Source of the DNA: a virus
Taxonomy: Duplodnaviria > Heunggongvirae > Uroviricota > Caudoviricetes
Direction: 5' to 3' (one strand)
IMG/VR virus record: IMGVR_UViG_2531839662_000026
DNA: 20,298 nt
In this document: piece by piece, positions 3,165 through 19,162 of the stretch
How the letters are laid out: every line of letters starts with the position of its first letter
How positions within the stretch are numbered: position 1 is the stretch's first letter
Translations under genes and position numbers: made by a program
The notes under the pieces: model-generated
Seen by the model: the letters and a program-made list of their open reading frames with translations, nothing else
Told to the model about the DNA's origin: nothing
The model's database searches: none

Positions 3165-4265
3165 TCATTCCATTTCGAAATCATCAATCCTCACTTCAAG
3201 CTCCAGACTGGTTGTAAAACCGTTATCCGGGCTGACGGTATGTGTCAGAGTCGTAATGGTCCATTCCGCATCATCTATCGGCTGTTTAAAACCACTGACC
3301 TTCACAGGCATTTCCGTGTAGAGATCTGCCCGCCCTTCTGCCAGTTGTAGCGAAAATGACGCAACGCCGCGTTGCAGGCGTTCCCACTGCATTTTCGCCG
3401 CTCGTTCGGCGTTGCTCCGGTTGGCATAAGTGCGATTAAGTACCAGCACGTTTTCATCCGTACCCACCAGGTAATCGCCCTGCTTCGCTTCTGGCTCTTT
3501 CTTCTGCTTCTTAGTTCTGCGCTTACGCTTCACCGTGGTGCTTTCTTTCTTCGCAGGTTCGCGGGTATGCAACCAGCTGGCAATTACGCCCGTGTAGGCT
3601 CCGCGATCTGCCAGGGTAAATCGGTGACTGTCGCCGTCCTTGCGTGTGATAGTGATCACTGGCAGAGGTTTACCAGTGGCGCTTTTGCCCTGCCCCTGCC
3701 GGATGAATAACAGATTGCCATTTTTCACCGACGCGATGGCACCGTACTGTCGCGCCAGCCGCATCAGAAAACTGCCGTCACTCTCATTAGTCTGGTCTAT
3801 ATGCTCCACGGGCTTATCCGACAGGTCTTTACCCAGTGCCATCTTCAGCTTGTGCCGCGCGGCTATTTCCTTCACCACTTCCCCGACGGTGGTCTTATGC
3901 CACGATTTTTCACGGCGGGTATTCAGCGTTTCCCGAAAATCAGCACTTCGCGCCCGGATAGTCAGGCGGTCCGGTGCGCCAGTGTGTTCAATCTCGTCCA
4001 CTGTGAATGCCCCTTTCGGGAAAAGCGGCTGCCCCTTCCAGCCCAGCGCCAGCGTAATAACCGCACCACGGCGCGGCAGCACGATTTTTCCGTCAGCGTC
4101 ATCCAGCTCCAGATCAAGCTGGTCCGCTTCAAAGCCCCGGTTATCCGTCAGCGTCAAACTCATCAGGCGGTTATCCAGCACAGTGGTGATATCCCTGCCC
4201 TCAATACTGATGCTGAATGCGGGAGTTTTGTTGCCTTTGTTAAGCAGTTCAGAGCTGAAATTCAC
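3165..4265 (-). CDS. D: Phage tail protein D (P2 gpD homologue)
   Basis: 366-aa ORF with ...LTDNRGFEADQLDLELDDADGKIVLPRRGAVITLALGW..., matching recalled P2 gpD; located between U' and ogr as in P2. Start probably GTG, overlapping the U stop. Confidence 0.85.
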   Translation of the reverse strand: MNFSSELLNKGNKTPAFSISIEGRDITTVLDNRLMSLTLTDNRGFEADQLDLELDDADGKIVLPRRGAVITLALGWKGQPLFPKGAFTVDEIEHTGAPDRLTIRARSADFRETLNTRREKSWHKTTVGEVVKEIAARHKLKMALGKDLSDKPVEHIDQTNESDGSFLMRLARQYGAIASVKNGNLLFIRQGQGKSATGKPLPVITITRKDGDSHRFTLADRGAYTGVIASWLHTREPAKKESTTVKRKRRTKKQKKEPEAKQGDYLVGTDENVLVLNRTYANRSNAERAAKMQWERLQRGVASFSLQLAEGRADLYTEMPVKVSGFKQPIDDAEWTITTLTHTVSPDNGFTTSLELEVRIDDFEME

Positions 4266-4660
4266 GACAGCAGCCCTCCCACCGTTTTACTGATATCGCT
4301 TAAGGCAGACGTTGCCGTGTCCTGCAGATTATTCAGTTGCGCACTGAGATCACCGAACATATCGGACAGGGATTCATCCACTCGTTTGAGCGACAGGGTG
4401 AACTCAATCCGGCGCGGCATACCGTCGCGGAAAAACTCCGTTTTAGTCTGATTCAGTCCCTCAATCACATACATGCCGTAAATCGTGCCGCTGCCTTCAA
4501 TCAGGGGCCATGCTTTCCCCTGTTCTGCCATCTGCTCCAGTGCCAGCAACGACAGCCTGCCGCCTGTTATTTCCGGCATAAGAACACCGGAAAGCGTCAG
4601 CATGTCGTTTTCCGGTCCCAGAAACTGCGTGGACGGACGTCGGTTTAACGCACCTCCGGT
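4262..4660 (-). pseudogene. U: 5'-truncated tail protein U gene (P2 gpU homologue), fused to an N fragment by an internal deletion
   Basis: ORF 4262-4603 (...GVLMPEITGGRLSLLALEQMAEQGKAWPLIEGSGTIYGMYVIEG...) resembles the C-terminal two-thirds of gpU. The same frame stays open upstream to about 4660 without a start codon, then meets a stop at the junction with N'. Confidence 0.6.
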
Positions 4661-4661
4661 C

Positions 4662-4760
4662 TACGGTGAACTTGCTGGACAGTTCTTCAACTGCCACACC
4701 GTTCAGACGCGCCAGTTGCTGCAGATAAGCGTTAAAAGCAAAGCGGGTATTCTTCTTCAT
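4662..4760 (-). pseudogene. N: Remnant of major capsid protein gene N (first ~33 codons only)
   Basis: ORF 4497-4760 begins MKKNTRFAFNAYLQQLARLNGVAVEELSSKFTV, which matches the recalled N-terminus of P2 gpN (MRQETRFKFNAYLSRVAELNGIDAGDVSKKFTV); similarity ends abruptly after FTV. Sits 16 nt downstream of O, as N does in P2. Confidence 0.6.
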
Positions 4761-4776: not shown

Positions 4777-5610
4777 TCAGCAATTGGTCAGAGTGTCAGC
4801 GGGGGCGTTACCGCCTGTTGCACGCTGGCGGTAGTCCTGGCGGCTGTCTTCATGGCTCAGCTTGTCCACCAGTTCGTTAAAGGCGGTCTGCTGTGCCTGC
4901 AGGGCAGTCTCCAGCTCAGACAGGCGTTCTTCCTGCTCAGACAGGGATTTTTCGGTGCGCGCACTCAGGTTCTGCTGCTCAGTGGCGACCAGTTCCACGG
5001 CCTTATGCACATCAGAGAACCGGGCGTCATCGGACTGCTCTTTTTTGGTGAACAGCGCCGTGACACGGGCAAACAGGGACGGTTTGTCATCCTGGATTTC
5101 TTCCAGTTCGATCACCGTTTCCTCTGCAGCGGTAAAAAGATTGGCGGGATTCTGCTTGCGGTTTGCCAGCGGGTTATGGGCTGCACTGGCGCTGAATGTC
5201 AGCATTTCAGTGCCCAGACTGGCAGGGTCATCAGTGGCAGCCAGGCCGACCAGGTAGGCTTTGCCCGTATCAGCGAACTTCGGGCTAACTTCCATAGATG
5301 TGAATAATTTCTGGCCTTTTTTCACCAGTTCCACCAGGGACTCCGTTGGCTCAACGTCGGCATACAGCGCCATCTTGCCTGCCAGCGGACCTTCCTTGAT
5401 TTCTTCAGCAAACAGCGCCGTCACCTTGCCGTAGCGGTTAAAGGTGCTGTCCGGCAGATAAGACTTGATGTGCTCAAGGTTAATCAGCGCGGTATACACC
5501 GCCGGGTTGTAGCTGGCTGCCATCTGTTCCAGCCATTCACGCTGGATTTCGCGTCCGTCGGTGGTGGCACCTTCCACCCCGATGCGAAAACGCTTTGCTT
5601 TCACTGTCAT
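4777..5610 (-). CDS. O: Capsid scaffolding protein (P2 gpO homologue)
   Basis: 277-aa ORF with FRIGVEGATTDGREI...INLEH...YLVGLAATDDPASLGTEML...KATGG...; matches recalled P2 gpO; divergent from P as in P2. Confidence 0.88.
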   Translation of the reverse strand: MTVKAKRFRIGVEGATTDGREIQREWLEQMAASYNPAVYTALINLEHIKSYLPDSTFNRYGKVTALFAEEIKEGPLAGKMALYADVEPTESLVELVKKGQKLFTSMEVSPKFADTGKAYLVGLAATDDPASLGTEMLTFSASAAHNPLANRKQNPANLFTAAEETVIELEEIQDDKPSLFARVTALFTKKEQSDDARFSDVHKAVELVATEQQNLSARTEKSLSEQEERLSELETALQAQQTAFNELVDKLSHEDSRQDYRQRATGGNAPADTLTNC

Positions 5611-5688
5611 GAGCCGTGCTCCGTTAGAAAAAACTTACTGGAGCCTTATGGTTGCGGTGATGGGGGCAGTGAAACAATGCGCGGTATT

Positions 5689-5706
5689 TGTACCGACAAC
5701 CACACA
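5689..5706. promoter_or_regulatory. TGT-N12-ACA dyad (tgtaccgacaaccacaca), candidate Ogr/B-dependent late promoter element in the O/P divergent intergenic region
   Basis: Motif read from sequence. P2-family late promoters carry a TGT-N12-ACA activator site upstream of the -35 position; this one lies ~87 bp upstream of the O start codon. Confidence 0.3.
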
Positions 5707-5752
5707 AACCGCAGGCGGGGAAAGCCTTCATTCAAGGTTGTAGGTTTGTGCC

Positions 5753-7519
5753 ATGAACACCACACTGACACCCGCAGATCTCGATCCCCGTCGGCAGGCC
5801 ATGCTGCTGTACTTTCAGGGATACCGCGTAGCCCGCATTGCTGAAATGCTGGGCGAGAAAGTTGCAACCGTTCACAGCTGGAAAAAACGCGACAAGTGGG
5901 GTGACTATGGGCCGCTGGATCAGATGCAGCTCACCACCGCCGCACGCTACTGCCAGCTCATCATGAAGGAGCACAAAGAAGGGAAAGATTTCAAAGAGAT
6001 TGACCTGCTGGCGCGCCAGTCGGAGCGCCACGCGCGGATCGGCAAGTTTAACAATGGCGGCAACGAAGCCGACTTAAACCCTAACGTCGCCAACCGCAAT
6101 AAAGGCCCACGCCGTCAGCCGGAAAAGAATGTTTTCACCGATGAGCAGATTGAGAAGCTGGAAGAAATCTTCCATTCCTCCATGTTCAACTACCAGCGCC
6201 ACTGGTGGGAAGCCGGAAAAACCAACCGCATCCGCAACCTGCTGAAGTCACGCCAGATCGGCGCGACCTTTTACTTTGCCCGTGAAGCCCTGATTGACGC
6301 CCTGCTTACCGGACGTAACCAGATTTTCCTTTCCGCCAGCAAGGCACAGGCCCACGTCTTTAAGCAGTACATCATCGACTTCGCCAAAGAAGTGGGGGTG
6401 GAGTTGAAAGGCGATCCGATGGTGCTTCCTAACGGGGCCACGCTTTACTTCCTCGGCACCAATGCCCGCACGGCCCAGAGTTATCACGGCAACCTGTATC
6501 TGGATGAATATTTCTGGATACCGAAATTCCAGGAGCTGCGCAAAGTGGCTTCCGGTATGGCTATTCACAAAAAATGGCGACAAACCTATTTTTCCACGCC
6601 ATCCAGCCTGACACACAGTGCTTATCCGTTCTGGTCCGGTGCGCTGTTCAACCGTGGGCGCAACAAGGCCGACAAGGTGGACATCGACCTGTCCCACAGC
6701 AATCTGGCCCCCGGCCTGCTGTGCGCAGACGGGCAATACCGCCAGATAGTCACCGTGGAAGATGCGGTGCGCGGCGGCTGTAACCTGTTCGACCTTGACC
6801 AGTTGCGCATGGAGTACAGCCCGGACGAATACCAGAACCTGCTGATGTGCGAGTTTGTGGACGATCTCGCGTCCGTATTTCCGCTCAGCGAGCTGCAGGC
6901 GTGCATGGTGGACAGCTGGGAAGTCTGGACCGACTTTCATGCACTGGCTCTGCGCCCGTTTGGCTGGCGCGAAGTGTGGATCGGTTATGACCCGGCAAAA
7001 GGTACGCAAAACGGCGACAGCGCCGGATGCGTGGTGGTGGCACCGCCAGCCGTGCCTGGTGGTAAGTTCCGCATTCTTGAGCGTCACCAGTGGCGCGGGA
7101 TGGACTTCCGCGCCCAGGCTGACGCCATCAAAAAACTGACCGAACAGTACAACGTGACCTATATCGGTATCGACTCAACCGGCGTTGGTCACGGGGTTTA
7201 TGAGAACGTGAAAGCGTTCTTTCCTGCCGTCCGGGAGTTTGTCTACAACCCCAATGTTAAAAACGCCCTGGTACTCAAGGCCTACGACATTATCAGCCAC
7301 CGCCGTCTGGAGTTTGACGCCGGGCACACCGACATTGCGCAGTCATTTATGGCAATCCGTCGCGCTACCACTGCCAGTGGCAACCGCCCGACCTATGAAG
7401 CCAGCCGCAGCGAAGAAGCCAGCCATGCCGATCTGGCCTGGGCAACAATGCACGCACTGTTTAACGAACCGCTGCAGGGCGAGTCCGCCAATACCAGCAA
7501 TATTGTGGAGATTTTTTGA
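5753..7519 (+). CDS. P: Terminase large (ATPase) subunit (P2 gpP homologue)
   Basis: 588-aa ORF MNTTLTPADLDPRRQAMLLYFQGYRVARIAEMLG... matches recalled P2 gpP in sequence and length; stop overlaps the Q start (tgATG). Confidence 0.9.
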   Translation: MNTTLTPADLDPRRQAMLLYFQGYRVARIAEMLGEKVATVHSWKKRDKWGDYGPLDQMQLTTAARYCQLIMKEHKEGKDFKEIDLLARQSERHARIGKFNNGGNEADLNPNVANRNKGPRRQPEKNVFTDEQIEKLEEIFHSSMFNYQRHWWEAGKTNRIRNLLKSRQIGATFYFAREALIDALLTGRNQIFLSASKAQAHVFKQYIIDFAKEVGVELKGDPMVLPNGATLYFLGTNARTAQSYHGNLYLDEYFWIPKFQELRKVASGMAIHKKWRQTYFSTPSSLTHSAYPFWSGALFNRGRNKADKVDIDLSHSNLAPGLLCADGQYRQIVTVEDAVRGGCNLFDLDQLRMEYSPDEYQNLLMCEFVDDLASVFPLSELQACMVDSWEVWTDFHALALRPFGWREVWIGYDPAKGTQNGDSAGCVVVAPPAVPGGKFRILERHQWRGMDFRAQADAIKKLTEQYNVTYIGIDSTGVGHGVYENVKAFFPAVREFVYNPNVKNALVLKAYDIISHRRLEFDAGHTDIAQSFMAIRRATTASGNRPTYEASRSEEASHADLAWATMHALFNEPLQGESANTSNIVEIF

Positions 7520-8553
7520 TGGGAAAGAGTAAGAAGAACCGCGCTGCGTCGACGAAACAGATCCAGCATAAAAGCCAGACTTCAGCCGAAGCATTCAGCT
7601 TCGGTGATCCCGTTCCTGTTCTGGACCGCCGCGAACTGCTGGACTATGTGGAATGCGTACAGATGGAGTGTTGGTACGAGCCACCCGTAAGTTTTGACGG
7701 ACTGGCGCGCACCTTCCGGGCTGCCGTGCATCACAGTTCCCCGATTGCAGTAAAGTGCAACATTCTGACCAGTACCTATATCCCTCATCCGCTGCTCAGC
7801 CAACAGGCTTTTTCGCGTTTTGTACAGGACTATCTGGTATTTGGTAACGCCTACCTGGAGAAACGCACGAACCGATTCGGTGAAGTTATCGCCCTTGAGC
7901 CTGCGCTGGCAAAATACACCCGACGCGGGTTAGACCTGGATACCTACTGGTTTGTGCAATACGGTATGACAACCCAGCCGTATCAGTTCACGAAAGGCAG
8001 CATTTTTCAGCTGATGGAACCGGACATCAACCAGGAGATCTACGGCCTGCCCGGCTATCTTTCTGCCATCCCATCCGCTTTGCTCAACGAGTCCGCCACG
8101 CTGTTCCGCCGCAAGTATTACATTAACGGCAGTCATGCCGGCTTCATCATGTACATGACCGATGCCGCGCAGAACCAGGAGGATGTGAACAACCTCCGCA
8201 ACGCAATGAAAAGCGCCAAAGGTCCGGGTAACTTCCGCAATCTGTTTATGTACTCGCCTAATGGTAAAAAAGACGGACTTCAGATTATCCCGTTGTCAGA
8301 AGTCGCAGCGAAGGATGAATTTCTGAATATCAAAAATGTTAGTCGCGATGACATGATGGCGGCACACCGCGTGCCGCCACAGATGATGGGGATAATGCCA
8401 AATAATGTTGGGGGGTTTGGGGATGTGGAGAAGGCAAGTAATGTATTTGTACGCAATGAACTAATACCATTGCAAAAAAGATTTGAAGAGTTAAATGTTT
8501 GGTTAAAAGAAAAAGTGATACAGTTCGAAGAATATAAACTTCATTCAAATTAG
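7519..8553 (+). CDS. Q: Portal (capsid vertex) protein (P2 gpQ homologue)
   Basis: 344-aa ORF MGKSKKNRA...FSFGDPVPVLDRRELLDYVEC...LARTFRAAVHHSSPIAVKCNILTSTYIPHP... matches recalled P2 gpQ closely. Start set at the ATG at 7519. Confidence 0.9.
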   Translation: MGKSKKNRAASTKQIQHKSQTSAEAFSFGDPVPVLDRRELLDYVECVQMECWYEPPVSFDGLARTFRAAVHHSSPIAVKCNILTSTYIPHPLLSQQAFSRFVQDYLVFGNAYLEKRTNRFGEVIALEPALAKYTRRGLDLDTYWFVQYGMTTQPYQFTKGSIFQLMEPDINQEIYGLPGYLSAIPSALLNESATLFRRKYYINGSHAGFIMYMTDAAQNQEDVNNLRNAMKSAKGPGNFRNLFMYSPNGKKDGLQIIPLSEVAAKDEFLNIKNVSRDDMMAAHRVPPQMMGIMPNNVGGFGDVEKASNVFVRNELIPLQKRFEELNVWLKEKVIQFEEYKLHSN

Positions 8554-8559
8554 CTTTAA

Positions 8560-8578
8560 GGCTGCCAGTTTGGCAGCC
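8560..8578. terminator. Hairpin (ggctgcca-gtt-tggcagcc) between convergent Q and the ATPase cargo gene
   Basis: Perfect 8-bp inverted repeat in the 32-bp gap between two convergent stop codons. No strong T-run, so termination efficiency is uncertain. Confidence 0.35.
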
Positions 8579-8585
8579 AGAACCT

Positions 8586-9836
8586 TTATCGCCATTTTAG
8601 ATAAAAAGCAAAAAATGGATCAGTAATATGCAACTTTCGGTCCTCCTTATCCCAATCTATTACAGGAGTTGAAGCTTCTTCCGTAGCAGCTATTTTAGCC
8701 ATTTTTTCTATAACACGAGTAACCTCATGAGCTTGTGGAGGAGCATCTTGCACCAGTTCGCGTATGGCTGATCTTAACTCCTCATACTGAATACTTTGCA
8801 TTCCTGGTTTCATATGTGACAATGCATATAATACAACTTTATATATATCTACTTCCTCACCACTTTTCAGTTTTCTAGGAATTCTGTCAGTTCGCTGATT
8901 AGGGCCACTAGCTAACTTATCAAATACTATTTTCCCAGTGGATTCTGCAACCTTTCTAAAAATATCATCATCTAAAGAATTAATAACTAACTTACTCGGC
9001 AAAGTTTCTTTAACATTATTTGCTAAGCATATAGCCTTGCAAAACTCTTGCATTAAATGAGGGCTTCCCAATGATTCATTGGCAATTTTATCAATTACTG
9101 AATCACTAACTTCCATGTTTAACAGAGGAAATCCCACTTTTGCTATTTGTTTTAGTTCATCCATTTCCCACGAAGGCATGGAAATATTTTCTAGCCGTCC
9201 GGTAATTTCTTTTTCAACTTTTACAGCATCATATCTTCGATGTGGAATGGCTATCAGTACAACTGGTACTCCATCAAAAACTAATGGTTTTATCGCTCTA
9301 ATAAAGTTACCTTGTAGGTCACGATCAAGGTAATGAAAGTCATCAATTATAAGACTAGACTTGGTTTGAGAGAGAACTTTTAGTGCAGAACTTTTTGCGG
9401 ATATCGTTCGCGATTTTTTATTACCATTTGACTTTCCATCCGTCTGAACTAAACCAGCCTCACCTGTACCTTTAACAACGAATGCACTTGCGGTCCCCGA
9501 TACCTTACCACTAACTGCAATAGCACTATTTTCTCCAGAATTAACTTCAATACTATGGTAGCCATTTAGTTTTTCTAATACCTGCTCCCAAATATCATCT
9601 TCAGTTGTAATACTCCCACCGTCAATCCATACAACATCATCGTCCATGACTGGGAATACCATTCTTGTAATTACAGTCTTACCAGACTTTGTTTGCCCAG
9701 TTAAAGTCACTAACTTACATAAATTATCTTTAGCACTCTCCAGTTTTCCATGAACCTCTCCTTCAGAGCGCTCAACATAAGTCAATTTCGGCATACCGCC
9801 AGGCACAAAAACTTGTGAAGCACGTTGTTTATCCAT
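8586..9836 (-). CDS. Cargo gene: 416-aa P-loop NTPase (Walker A GQTKSGKT, Walker B LIIDDFH), function unknown; candidate anti-phage or accessory ATPase
   Basis: Long ORF with an ATG start preceded by a GGGAAG Shine-Dalgarno-like sequence. Walker motifs are visible in the translation. AT-rich compared with neighbouring phage structural genes. No homologue recognised from memory. Confidence 0.7.
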   Translation of the reverse strand: MDKQRASQVFVPGGMPKLTYVERSEGEVHGKLESAKDNLCKLVTLTGQTKSGKTVITRMVFPVMDDDVVWIDGGSITTEDDIWEQVLEKLNGYHSIEVNSGENSAIAVSGKVSGTASAFVVKGTGEAGLVQTDGKSNGNKKSRTISAKSSALKVLSQTKSSLIIDDFHYLDRDLQGNFIRAIKPLVFDGVPVVLIAIPHRRYDAVKVEKEITGRLENISMPSWEMDELKQIAKVGFPLLNMEVSDSVIDKIANESLGSPHLMQEFCKAICLANNVKETLPSKLVINSLDDDIFRKVAESTGKIVFDKLASGPNQRTDRIPRKLKSGEEVDIYKVVLYALSHMKPGMQSIQYEELRSAIRELVQDAPPQAHEVTRVIEKMAKIAATEEASTPVIDWDKEDRKLHITDPFFAFYLKWR

Positions 9837-9873
9837 GAATACTTCCCAATTAACACAGCTCTAGTGAACTACG

Positions 9874-9902
9874 ATTCTAAAATAACATCTGAGCTTGGAC
9901 AA
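9874..9902 (-). promoter_or_regulatory. Candidate sigma70 promoter for the ATPase cargo gene (TTGTCC - 17 nt - TAGAAT on the - strand)
   Basis: Hexamers and spacing read from sequence, ~40-65 nt upstream of the ATG at 9836. Confidence 0.3.
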
Positions 9903-9944
9903 TTAACATTACATGATTTGAGTATTCAAAGCCACAAGCGCGCG

Positions 9945-9963
9945 CTCGTATCCCCGCCACGCC
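9945..9963 (-). other. Candidate cos (cohesive end) site: - strand reads GGCGTGGCGGGGATACGAG
   Basis: First 13 nt match my recollection of the 186 cos end (GGCGTGGCGGGGAAAGCAT; P2 is GGCGAGGCGGGGAAAGCAC). Lies in a GC-rich non-coding island between the Q-side and A-side gene blocks, where cos is expected. Confidence 0.4.
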
Positions 9964-10123
9964 TGCCCGCTTTATGTAGCGGTTTTCATGCGCCTGCATG
10001 ACATAAGCAAAATCCCGCCACTCCTGGCGGGCCTCAGCTAAAACGATCCTCAAACGATCATGCGGATTCATGCGGCATAGACATGCACAATCTCCAAAGC
10101 GGGCATCGAGACTTTTTGGAAAC

Positions 10124-10735
10124 CTACGTAACCACAGTTAATGTGTGCATCCTGTCTCGAATTGCATCACACGTCTCATCAAAAAGCTTGGTGATGGTTG
10201 TATGGTTCAACTCCGCCTCTTTCCAATAATTTTGCCCGTCAAATTCTGGATCGCTATGCTTAAACGATATTGACTCTGTAAGGCATTCCTTCCGGAAACG
10301 GTCCAAGATTATATAAACCTCTGGTGAGATGAACGGTTTGTTAGATTCAACACTTGTAACAAAAGTGTTAAATGCATCAAAAAAAACTTTCAACCTTCTA
10401 AATTTTCTCTCTTCAAATGGTTCGTTGGGGTCAACATGATCCAGCGCAGGCCTCAGCTTAAGCACGCTTTCTCTGGTTTCAAACATCGAATTCCAAATGA
10501 GACTATATGCTGATAACTCCTTATCAAAATACGCTTTCGTTACATAAACAGAATTGTCTAACTTAGCCTTTATTCTTTCATTAGTTGCACTCAGTTGTGA
10601 TTGAAATTCAGCAATATCTTTGTTTAGCCGCGACTTATATCTTTCTAAATAAACTTTCCCGATCCAAACAAATATGCCAGATGCAACAAAAGACACCCCA
10701 CCCAACGAAGCCAGAACTTTAAAGACTAAATCCAT
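10124..10735 (-). CDS. Cargo gene: 203-aa protein with one N-terminal transmembrane helix, function unknown
   Basis: ATG at 10735 with a GGTGG Shine-Dalgarno-like sequence upstream. N-terminus VLASLGGVSFVASGIFVWIG is hydrophobic. AT-rich. A TATAAT -10 hexamer lies about 20-25 nt upstream of the ATG. Confidence 0.6.
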   Translation of the reverse strand: MDLVFKVLASLGGVSFVASGIFVWIGKVYLERYKSRLNKDIAEFQSQLSATNERIKAKLDNSVYVTKAYFDKELSAYSLIWNSMFETRESVLKLRPALDHVDPNEPFEERKFRRLKVFFDAFNTFVTSVESNKPFISPEVYIILDRFRKECLTESISFKHSDPEFDGQNYWKEAELNHTTITKLFDETCDAIRDRMHTLTVVT

Positions 10736-17485: not shown

Positions 17486-19162
17486 ATGAATTCATTTTCC
17501 ATCGTTATATTATTATTAGCATTTCTCGCCCCTGTTCTAGCTATAATATTATTTAAGCAAAGTAAAGAACACAAAGCCGCCATAGATAACCTGACGGCTA
17601 ACAACATAGCCCTTTCCAGCCAACTGAGTGAAAATCAAGAAAAGTTAGCACAGACTGCACGAGATCTATCAGAGCTTGAAGGGCGAGCAGCACCATTATG
17701 GCAATACGAAGAATTGCACAGCGCAGTGATGGAGGCAGAGAATAAGATAAAAAATGCAGACTCAATAGCTAGGCAAAAAATAGAAGAAGCCCAAATAAAG
17801 GCAGCTAAGACAGTAAACGAAGCAAGTTATCAAGCTCAGATAACAATAAGCAACGCTAATAGCGAAGCTATAGCAATCACCAAAGACGCTCGCGATGCAC
17901 GCCTGAAAGCCAAAGAACGTCTTGATAATGCCAACAGTAAAGCAAATGAGCTGATCTCAAATGCTAATGACAACGCAGTAAAAATTATTACCGATGCAGA
18001 AGAAAGAGCAAAAGAGATTGCTGGTTCAGCATATGAAGCTAAAGAGTTTGCAGAAAAATATGAAGCAGTTGCCAAATCAATGAAAAATAAAATTGAAGGT
18101 TATGGCGATGAATGGATCATCCCTAACCGTAGTGTACTTGATGAATTGGCAGAAAATTATGAGTTTACAGATGCAGGCAAGGAATTACAAAAAGCCAGGG
18201 AGTTAACAAAATCATTAATAAAAACTAATAAAGCAGCTTCGTGTGATTATGTTGAGCAAAACAGGCGTAATACTGCTATCAACTTTGTTTTGGATGCCTT
18301 CAATGGAAGAGTTGACAGTATTTTATCAAAAGTCAAACACAACAATTTTGGAAAACTTTCCCAAGAAATAAAAGATGCATTTCAACTTGTAAATTATAAT
18401 GGCTCTGCTTTTAGATCCGCAAAAATAAGTGACATCTATCTTCAGGCACGACTCAACGAGCTAAAATGGGGAGTTGCAGTTAATGAAATTATGCTCGAAG
18501 AAAAAGAGGAGCAAAGAAGGATTAAAGAACAGCTTCGTGAAGAGGAAAGAGCTCGTAGAGAGTATGAAAAAGCGATAAAAGAAGCCGAAAAAGAAGAAAA
18601 AGCTATTCAGCAAGCTATAAATAAAGCAACGAAAGAGCTTATGCTTGCAAATGAAGAACAACGCTTAGCTTTAGAGCAAAAAATAGCTGAACTACAGTTA
18701 AAATATGAAGAAGCTGAAGCTAAAAACCAACGAGCTATTTCTATGGCTCAACAAACTAGATCAGGCCATGTTTATATAATTAGCAATATTGGCTCATTTG
18801 GCGAAGATGTATATAAAATTGGAATGACACGCCGCCTTGAACCACTTGATCGTGTTCGTGAACTTGGGGATGCTAGTGTTCCTTTTTCGTTCGATGTTCA
18901 TGCGATGATTTATAGTGATGATGCACCGTCATTAGAAAATCATCTGCATAAAGTCTTCAACGAAAAGCAGGTCAATAAAATTAACTCACGAAAAGAGTTT
19001 TTTAACGTAAATATTAAAGAAATTAAATCGGTTATTGAAGATATGAACATCAATGCCCACTGGACAATGTTTGCAGAGGCGAAAGAATATAGAGAGTCAC
19101 TAGCTATTGAGCAGGAACGCAAAGCAGCCACTTCCGCCAACGATGAACTACATGTTGCTTAG
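17486..19162 (+). CDS. Cargo gene: 558-aa protein with an N-terminal transmembrane helix, a long coiled coil and a C-terminal T5orf172/GIY-YIG-like domain; candidate lysogen-expressed defence or exclusion factor
   Basis: ATG with an AAGGA RBS 8 nt upstream, 20 bp after the cI stop. Hydrophobic N-terminus FSIVILLLAFLAPVLAIILF. Strongly A/E/K/Q-rich middle with repeated NANS/NAND motifs. C-terminus GHVYIISNIGSFGEDVYKIGMTRRLEPLDRVRELGDASVPFSFDVH...EFFNVNIKEIKSVIEDMN fits the T5orf172 (MUG113) pattern as I recall it. Markedly AT-rich. Confidence 0.8.
   Translation: MNSFSIVILLLAFLAPVLAIILFKQSKEHKAAIDNLTANNIALSSQLSENQEKLAQTARDLSELEGRAAPLWQYEELHSAVMEAENKIKNADSIARQKIEEAQIKAAKTVNEASYQAQITISNANSEAIAITKDARDARLKAKERLDNANSKANELISNANDNAVKIITDAEERAKEIAGSAYEAKEFAEKYEAVAKSMKNKIEGYGDEWIIPNRSVLDELAENYEFTDAGKELQKARELTKSLIKTNKAASCDYVEQNRRNTAINFVLDAFNGRVDSILSKVKHNNFGKLSQEIKDAFQLVNYNGSAFRSAKISDIYLQARLNELKWGVAVNEIMLEEKEEQRRIKEQLREEERARREYEKAIKEAEKEEKAIQQAINKATKELMLANEEQRLALEQKIAELQLKYEEAEAKNQRAISMAQQTRSGHVYIISNIGSFGEDVYKIGMTRRLEPLDRVRELGDASVPFSFDVHAMIYSDDAPSLENHLHKVFNEKQVNKINSRKEFFNVNIKEIKSVIEDMNINAHWTMFAEAKEYRESLAIEQERKAATSANDELHVA

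Follow-up and report, generated by a model that had tools for sequence, protein, structure and literature searches.

A stand-alone AAA+/STAND-like ATPase gene in the cos-Q spacer of a P2-like prophage is a mobile cassette and a candidate anti-phage gene

The DNA analysed here, the 20,298 nucleotide IMG/VR virus record IMGVR_UViG_2531839662_000026 (hereafter the window), is 100% identical to a region of the chromosome of the porcine Escherichia coli isolate UMNF18 (~919-940 kb, between ybjL and rcdA). It contains a P2-like prophage whose orientation is reversed relative to the P2 map and whose gene order is ogr, D, a tail-gene fragment abutting a capsid-gene fragment, O, P, Q, cargo, gpA, dam, early genes, cI, a DUF4041 gene and int. 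The element studied is the cargo gene next to Q, an intact open reading frame at positions 8586..9836 on the minus strand that starts with ATG and encodes a 416-residue, stand-alone AAA+/STAND-like P-loop nucleoside triphosphatase (NTPase), referred to below as the ATPase. RefSeq gives the identical coding sequence as WP_000360886.1, labelled 'hypothetical protein', and the assignment is also based on homologues and on a match to the PADLOC candidate family PDC-S59. A previous reading of the letters alone (the sequence-only reading) had described an AT-rich 416-residue gene on the strand opposite to Q. This is correct: the GC content is 0.37 over positions 8501-9500, versus 0.52-0.58 in P and Q next to it.

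That reading had also placed the gene between cos and Q. Alignment of the P2 cos region to the window (46 identities over 59 positions, E 2e-9), using the annotated P2 cosL/cosR and a comparison of junctions, located the equivalent of the 19-nt cohesive end, GGCGTGGCGGGGATACGAG, at 9945..9963 on the minus strand, where it forms the left edge of the cassette. A search of the window for the exact P2 cos 19-mer, allowing up to three mismatches, gave no match because the local 19-mer differs from that of P2 at five positions. The ~150 bp around cos are 87-95% identical to the best-matching records among 85 matching P2-like phage records. With the stop codon of Q at 8553, the ATPase gene therefore sits between cos and Q as proposed. 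In P2 the corresponding interval is indeed short and non-coding (167 bp; cosL 1-19, tQ 160-181, Q stop 187). The view of the cos-proximal region as a cargo hotspot agrees with the published gpA-gpQ hotspot discussed below, but the P2 genes old and tin, which had been given as its precedents, are located on the opposite, gpA side of cos.

In loci with different cargos, homology stops ~7-10 nt past the cohesive end, at …GAGCGCGCGC, which is followed by variable sequence. At the opposite end of the cassette, the 3′ end of Q, which is AT-rich, and the hairpin that follows it (~8400..8580) vary by cargo type when compared with loci L003, L004, L011 and L012 and with P2. This suggests that the right-hand recombination junction falls within the end of Q, so that the portal protein would exchange its C-terminal tail along with the cargo; the break in homology, mapped only roughly, is probably within this AT-rich 3′ end. 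A consensus scan found a promoter-like site (TTGTCC-17-TAGAAT; 9874..9902, minus strand) upstream of the ATPase gene, and a GGGAAG Shine-Dalgarno-like motif is located 5 nt ahead of its ATG. The sequence-only reading had assigned the gene a plausible promoter of its own. A consensus match does exist, but since promoter-like matches in the region are no more numerous than in shuffled sequence (5 found versus 6.1 expected) the putative promoter is plausible only. An 8-bp GC-rich hairpin, GGCTGCCA-GTT-TGGCAGCC (8560..8578, no strand), separates the stop codons of the two convergent genes, Q and the ATPase gene, and is a putative bidirectional terminator; it was not called by the terminator scan because it has no T-run. 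It is unlike the hairpins beside other cargos and unlike P2 tQ, and each cargo type carries its own, different promoter and hairpin sequences.

The arrangement was invariable in 16 P2-like loci (E. coli, Salmonella, Dryocola and IMG/VR), which all have cos, 115-135 bp, the ATPase gene and a convergent Q; this order persists even where gpA is just 35% identical. A survey of homologous P2-like prophages revealed that the same slot can hold variants of the ATPase gene (69-71% identical, in Salmonella and E. coli), an AIPR protein matching AbiU (E 5e-24; strain N39) or a DUF4145 protein that weakly matches PD-T7-4 (E 1e-6; strain WP8-S17-ESBL-05). The segment ~8555-9940 is a mobile single-gene 'moron' cassette, composed of promoter-like site, gene and hairpin, in the cos-Q spacer. 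In five complete E. coli genomes (IAI39, CE10, AR_0013, N32 and OZ546943) all that is left of the ATPase gene is its final 45 nt (8586..8630), at 100% identity, and judged from their sequence these 3′ remnants look like scars of cassette replacement. RefSeq further annotates a 64-residue 'hypothetical protein' (WP_071533703; 9877..10071, minus strand) that overlaps the conserved non-coding cos region and whose span includes terminator-like hairpins at 10014-10031 and 9967-9982. This is most likely a spurious gene call, one that would also inflate the counts of 'gene arrangements' in hotspot catalogues.

Both nucleotide-binding motifs named in the sequence-only reading are present in the protein. 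Walker A (GQTKSGKT, residues 47-54; 9675..9698, minus strand) is placed at the β1-α1 junction of an AlphaFold2 (AF2) model, and Walker B (LIIDDFH, residues 162-168; 9333..9353, minus strand), which is of the hhhhDD type with IIDD at residues 163-166, at the end of strand 161-165 (β3). An alignment of 50 homologues with 52-90% identity contains 86 invariant columns that include all nucleotide-binding motifs, among them G47, T49, K50, G52 and K53 of Walker A and D165, D166, F167, H168 and Y169 at Walker B. The helical lid (residues 223-277; 9006..9170, minus strand), assigned from the model and a weak alignment to the RuvB lid, contains a GSPH motif (residues 257-260) of which S258, P259 and H260 are invariant, as is the adjoining L261, and G257 is kept in at least 90% of the homologues. 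Within the ATPase core lies a Gly/Ser/Lys-rich hypervariable insert (residues 97-141; 9414..9548, minus strand) that is predicted to be disordered. Its mean pairwise identity in the family alignment is 26%, versus 55-70% elsewhere, and its length is steady at 45-50 residues. The linker is basic (isoelectric point, pI, ~10) and has the motif GPRQRxDRxxRxLK. The C-terminal winged-helix domain (residues 325-416; 8589..8864, minus strand) is acidic, with a median pI of 4.7, and is the most conserved part of the protein (70% pairwise identity, the highest of all domains).

The AF2 model (predicted local distance difference test score, pLDDT, 77.8; predicted template modelling score, pTM, 0.71) consists of an AAA+ α/β core, a helical lid, a long linker helix and a winged helix of topology α1-β1-α2-α3-β2-β3. 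The C-terminal region, previously described as long and helical, would hence not be simply helical: according to the model it is made up of lid, linker helix and winged helix. The hypervariable insert forms the 45-residue disordered tip (pLDDT <50) of a β-hairpin between helix 79-89 and the Walker B strand. As in AAA+/ASCE proteins, a Walker A of the form GxxxxGK[ST] and a Walker B of the form hhhhD[DE] are found on a five-stranded α/β core that is followed by a helical lid. Top Foldseek matches to the model were Orc1/Cdc6 and CED-4, and Avs3/4/5, resistosomes, NB-ARC proteins, MalT and AfsR were also matched. When the C-terminal 139 residues were modelled alone (pLDDT 87), only winged-helix proteins were matched (Cdc6, 2qen, Fur, histone H1/H5 and cullin). 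On the predicted structure, the protein is an AAA+ ATPase of the Orc1/Cdc6-ATPase_2-STAND assemblage, and not an ABC, KAP or Old-like one. The protein ends after the winged helix, at residue 416, and because the model has neither C-terminal sensor repeats nor an N-terminal effector domain it would constitute a bare nucleotide-binding oligomerization domain (NOD) module.

The sequence-only reading suspected a defence ATPase of a family it could not name. A name is in fact available: the protein matches in full length the PADLOC profile of PDC-S59 (PDLC05049; E 1.2e-31, 108.3 bits; residues 7-415 against profile positions 6-402 of 428), of which it is a fairly distant member as the score is just 108 bits, and the exact protein is listed as 'hypothetical' in Table S5A of Rousset et al. 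2022 (PMC9122126). The ATPase is thus not new to databases, but belongs to a catalogued candidate family in an already described hotspot. Pfam matches of the window protein were to generic P-loop families and below threshold (AAA_22, 26.3 bits versus 27; AAA_16, 18.7 versus 32.6; TniB, 18.2 versus a gathering threshold of 22.4). Across the 50 members, AAA_22 matched 47, AAA_16 46, TniB 20, NB-ARC 6 and ATPase_2 (PF01637, at E<=0.01) none, and no KAP match was obtained for the window protein or any of the 50. No NCBIfam model applied, scores being noise only (e.g. DS8_antiphage, 11.5 bits versus a cut-off of 790), and PHROGs gave a match to one family of unknown function. Searches of the Protein Data Bank (PDB) by sequence, with the single sequence and with the family profile, returned nothing significant, the best match being the RuvB lid at E 0.047. 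PADLOC gave no Old, TOPRIM, ABC, Gabija or Tin match and, together with the predicted AAA+ fold, this agrees with the earlier remark that the protein does not resemble Old. A weak PADLOC match of residues 301-365 to LmuA/DUF4297 (Cap4-like nuclease; E 4e-4) was ruled out, the isolated C-terminal domain being predicted to fold as a winged helix.

At a nucleotide identity of at least 99.8% the gene is present in 7 of 5426 complete E. coli genomes, and a ~70% variant in three more; ~1290 genomes carry this P2-like region. In Salmonella the 69% allele is common, being indexed in >2700 blocks of an assembly collection. Other temperate phages carry relatives at places typical of morons: a 70% identical variant is located in the nin region of a lambdoid prophage (IMG/VR contig L104), and 33-37% identical variants are found beside a CI-like repressor or amid early genes. 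On contig L104 a eukaryotic-type Ser/Thr protein kinase gene (4878..5921), situated just past the antiterminator gene Q, is likely another exclusion-type moron. A tblastn search of the phage GenBank collection gave a single distant match (Clostridioides phage ES-S-0173-01, 27% identity), and the gene is therefore absent from the sequenced P2-like isolates of that collection. In a protein database clustered at 90% we found 1673 homologues, and 416 clusters were obtained at 50% identity and E<=1e-30, nearly all of them 400-460 residues long and aligning end to end. The family is present in Proteobacteria, Bacteroidota, Cyanobacteria, Acidobacteriota, Firmicutes, bacteria of the candidate phyla radiation and several archaea, with 39-60% identity to the E. 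coli protein.

Gene neighbourhoods were surveyed by clustering the genes around 77 species-level loci of bacteria and archaea. No recurrent partner gene emerged: every neighbour family is confined to 4 of these loci at most, and the gene stands alone in P2-like, lambdoid and chromosomal settings alike. The sequence-only reading was right in taking the gene for foreign cargo of the variable region near cos in a P2-like prophage; the gene is self-contained and has no obligatory partner. Tandem copies are present in 2 of the 77 loci, and only two fusions were encountered, both metagenomic (P0124, 902 residues; P0125, 917 residues), in which the ATPase is joined to a second STAND/ATPase_2-like P-loop module. 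These fusions give no hint of an effector, all they add being a further P-loop module; fusions and tandem copies together hint at an oligomer of like subunits. In the guaA-adjacent island that contains the homologue of Pseudoduganella sp. SL102, an nSTAND1/AAA_22 and putAbiC gene pair (L016, 8976..10975), located ~1.7 kb downstream of it, resembles a defence system of its own.

The gpA-gpQ interval is a published P2 defence hotspot (Rousset et al. 2022, PMC9122126), which was also described by Vassallo et al. 2022 (PMC9519451) and in a 2026 Nucleic Acids Research study of P2/P4 hotspots (PMC13586616). Protection was obtained from 3 of 8 untested P2 hotspot loci (Rousset et al. 2022, PMC9122126) and from 6 of 8 untested P4 hotspot loci; the Walker A peptide of the ATPase is absent from the cloned-system tables of Rousset et al. 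2022. On the basis of its location and its presence on the PADLOC candidate list, we infer with a probability of about 0.55-0.6 that the ATPase is an anti-phage protein expressed from the prophage. Like other occupants of the hotspot, it would protect the lysogen from other phages.

Several points weigh against this reading. PDC-S59 is one of 145 untested PDC candidates that were obtained by 'guilt-by-embedding' (Payne et al., bioRxiv 10.1101/2024.01.29.577857), and the searchable literature contains no mention of 'PDC-S59' or WP_000360886 and nothing specific on Cdc6-like anti-phage ATPases. The protein is also unusually conserved for an immune sensor, with 52-60% identity to homologues from other phyla (e.g. 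Nostoc, Verrucomicrobiales) and ~40% to an archaeal homologue (Methanosarcina). Moreover, the 128 nearest neighbours are mostly housekeeping genes, together with 3 integrases and a few defence genes (type II restriction-modification, PycC, AbiLi, PD-T4-6), so that outside phages defence-gene neighbours are not clearly above background and the island signal is at best weak. Two further points concern the way in which the protein would act: a blocking mechanism as proposed below lacks direct support because no effector domain is present, and the acidic winged helix argues against simple Orc-like DNA binding.

If the ATPase is nevertheless an anti-phage protein, a phage-derived cue, either protein or nucleic acid, might trigger its ATP-dependent self-assembly. 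Once assembled, the ATPase could stop infection through binding or sequestration of a replication or packaging factor of the phage or the host, with no cutting or modifying. Such a slow-hydrolysing nucleotide switch, which would assemble on a phage cue and neutralise its target by binding, is weakly inferred and we put it forward tentatively. Rather doubtful is the more specific proposal that the bare NOD-like ATPase (nucleotide-binding domain, lid and winged helix) is by itself sufficient for immunity, by a mode of action not described so far, with the hypervariable, length-conserved loop of residues 97-141 as specificity element or decoy and ATP-dependent assembly itself neutralising a phage replication or packaging factor. 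If true, it would represent a minimal, ancient form of STAND/Orc-type immunity, as the family spans bacteria and archaea.

A role in DNA transactions of mobile elements is unlikely. The protein would then be an Orc/TnsC/MuB/TniB-like, ATP-dependent DNA-binding factor that acts in replication, target choice or the handling of cos ends. The sub-threshold TniB scores, of 18.2 bits for the window protein and seen in 20 of the 50 members, and a Vibrio cholerae copy that adjoins a Tn5-type transposase gene are consistent with such a role, but no transposase or replication gene recurs near the 77 loci. Similarly, the gene adjoins cos in all P2-like loci, yet unrelated genes fill the same slot, and its rarity (10 of 5426 complete E. 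coli genomes, versus ~1290 with this P2-like region) indicates that it is dispensable for P2-like biology. Finally, the linker is basic (pI ~10), which would suit such a role, whereas the winged helix is acidic.

Quite unlikely is a MalT- or AfsR-like signalling or regulatory NTPase, or some other lysogenic conversion function that helps the host in ways that have nothing to do with phages. The STAND-like layout of nucleotide-binding, helical and winged-helix domains with hhhhDD and GxP-like motifs, the presence of MalT and AfsR among the structural matches and the very high cross-phylum conservation would all suit a regulator, but neither sensor repeats nor a basic DNA-binding domain are present and the 77 loci show no conserved regulated neighbour. 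It is also true that about one quarter of P2-like phages have a non-defence plasmid-partitioning system at gpA-gpQ and ~2% a toxin gene (PMC9122126). However, the embedding-based candidate list of PADLOC and the other occupants of the slot point to defence.

On the gpA side of cos, positions 10124..10735 (minus strand) encode a 203-residue protein with an N-terminal hydrophobic helix and a coiled coil, which the sequence-only reading had considered as a possible partner of the ATPase. It corresponds to phrog_26391 (unknown function) and has no PADLOC match; its RefSeq name 'valyl-tRNA synthetase' apparently derives from a weak match to a coiled-coil tRNA-binding arm (Pfam E 0.009). As would be expected of a two-gene system, it adjoins the ATPase gene and shares its strand in the window, in a second complete E. 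coli genome, in certain Salmonella prophages (L007) and in the IMG/VR contigs L099 and L105. Such a system is largely excluded, however. The cos site lies between the genes, which are therefore at opposite ends of the packaged DNA, and a terminator-like site (10031-10014) follows the 203-residue gene. The ATPase gene has a different neighbour or none in L002, L004-L006, L012, L097 and L098, while strains N39 and WP8-S17-ESBL-05 have retained the 203-residue gene next to their AIPR and DUF4145 cargos, and no such neighbour occurs in the 77 other loci. Because each occurs without the other, the two genes are independent modules that are inherited independently.

The UMNF18 prophage is defective. 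At 4262..4760 (minus strand) a tail-gene fragment without its N-terminus lies directly against a major-capsid-gene fragment without its C-terminus; one large deletion, reaching from N to the tail genes, took out the P2 structural genes but left both cargo genes intact, and the prophage is consequently unable to form particles. Despite this loss of the capsid-to-tail genes and the five E. coli genomes that have only the 45-nt remnant, it is very improbable that the ATPase gene is an inert passenger or decaying remnant, as the open reading frame is intact and 99.8-100% identical in seven E. coli genomes, 86 columns, nucleotide-binding motifs included, are invariant in 50 homologues, and nearly all of the 416 clusters are full length. 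Between the cI repressor and integrase genes, an AT-rich gene (17486..19162, plus strand) encodes a 558-residue DUF4041 protein. The prophage that carries the ATPase also has a PD-Lambda-1 homologue; PD-Lambda-1 is a validated defence family (Vassallo et al. 2022, PMC9519451). With the DUF4041 gene, the defective prophage therefore retains a second, known defence gene.

Should the ATPase indeed protect against phages, it would be among the smallest STAND/Orc-like immune proteins and, having no recognisable effector, could show how an ATPase switch alone is able to stop a phage, and one of the 145 PADLOC candidates would become a validated system. As to the hotspot, the gpA-gpQ interval consists of two separately exchangeable compartments, one per side of cos, of which the cos-Q compartment swaps whole cassettes with their own promoter and terminator. 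Both points, the possible defence function and the two-compartment hotspot, are incremental to Rousset et al. 2022 and the 2026 study.

Comparison with known systems sets the ATPase apart from several of them. In KAP NTPases the P-loop domain is split by transmembrane helices, whereas the insert of the ATPase (residues 97-141) is Gly/Ser/Lys-rich, predicted to be disordered and not hydrophobic. With respect to TnsC, TniB and MuB, the TniB score stays below the gathering threshold and no transposase gene recurs as neighbour in the 77 loci. P2 Old and Tin resemble the ATPase in that they are products of AT-rich accessory genes that a prophage carries close to cos and that have a promoter of their own. 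Old, however, is an ABC-type ATPase fused to TOPRIM (586 residues) that is encoded on the gpA side of cos, unlike the predicted AAA+ protein with its C-terminal winged helix. Tin is reported to act by poisoning T4 gp32, which provides a precedent for non-enzymatic exclusion.

The nearest relatives in structure are found elsewhere. With Orc1/Cdc6 the ATPase shares a C-terminal winged helix after the lid, but there is no match at the sequence level (Pfam, NCBIfam, PDB), its Walker B has DD and not DE, its winged helix is acidic (pI 4.7) where that of Orc1/Cdc6 is basic and reads DNA, and its gene is not linked to a replication origin or to replisome genes in the 77 loci. The best structural neighbours are the archaeal ATPase_2 proteins PABY2304 (PDB 2qen) and SSO1545 (PDB 2fna), which are 13-16% identical to it in sequence; PF01637 matches none of the 50 family members. 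To our knowledge, neither archaeal protein has a known function. STAND NTPases (Avs/AVAST, bacterial NOD-like receptor (NLR)-like proteins, CED-4/Apaf-1 and plant NB-ARC proteins) have in common with the ATPase the succession of nucleotide-binding, helical and winged-helix domains, a GxP-like motif (GSP, residues 257-259) and the hhhhDD Walker B that is typical of STAND proteins. The ATPase differs from them in having no fused sensor repeats or effector, and its AAA_16 and NB-ARC matches are below the gathering threshold. PDC-S59, finally, is like the window protein both in the full-length profile match and in its single-gene architecture ('S' class); the embedding context that defines this candidate was not reproduced in the 77 sampled loci, but within P2-like phages the gene sits in a defence hotspot.

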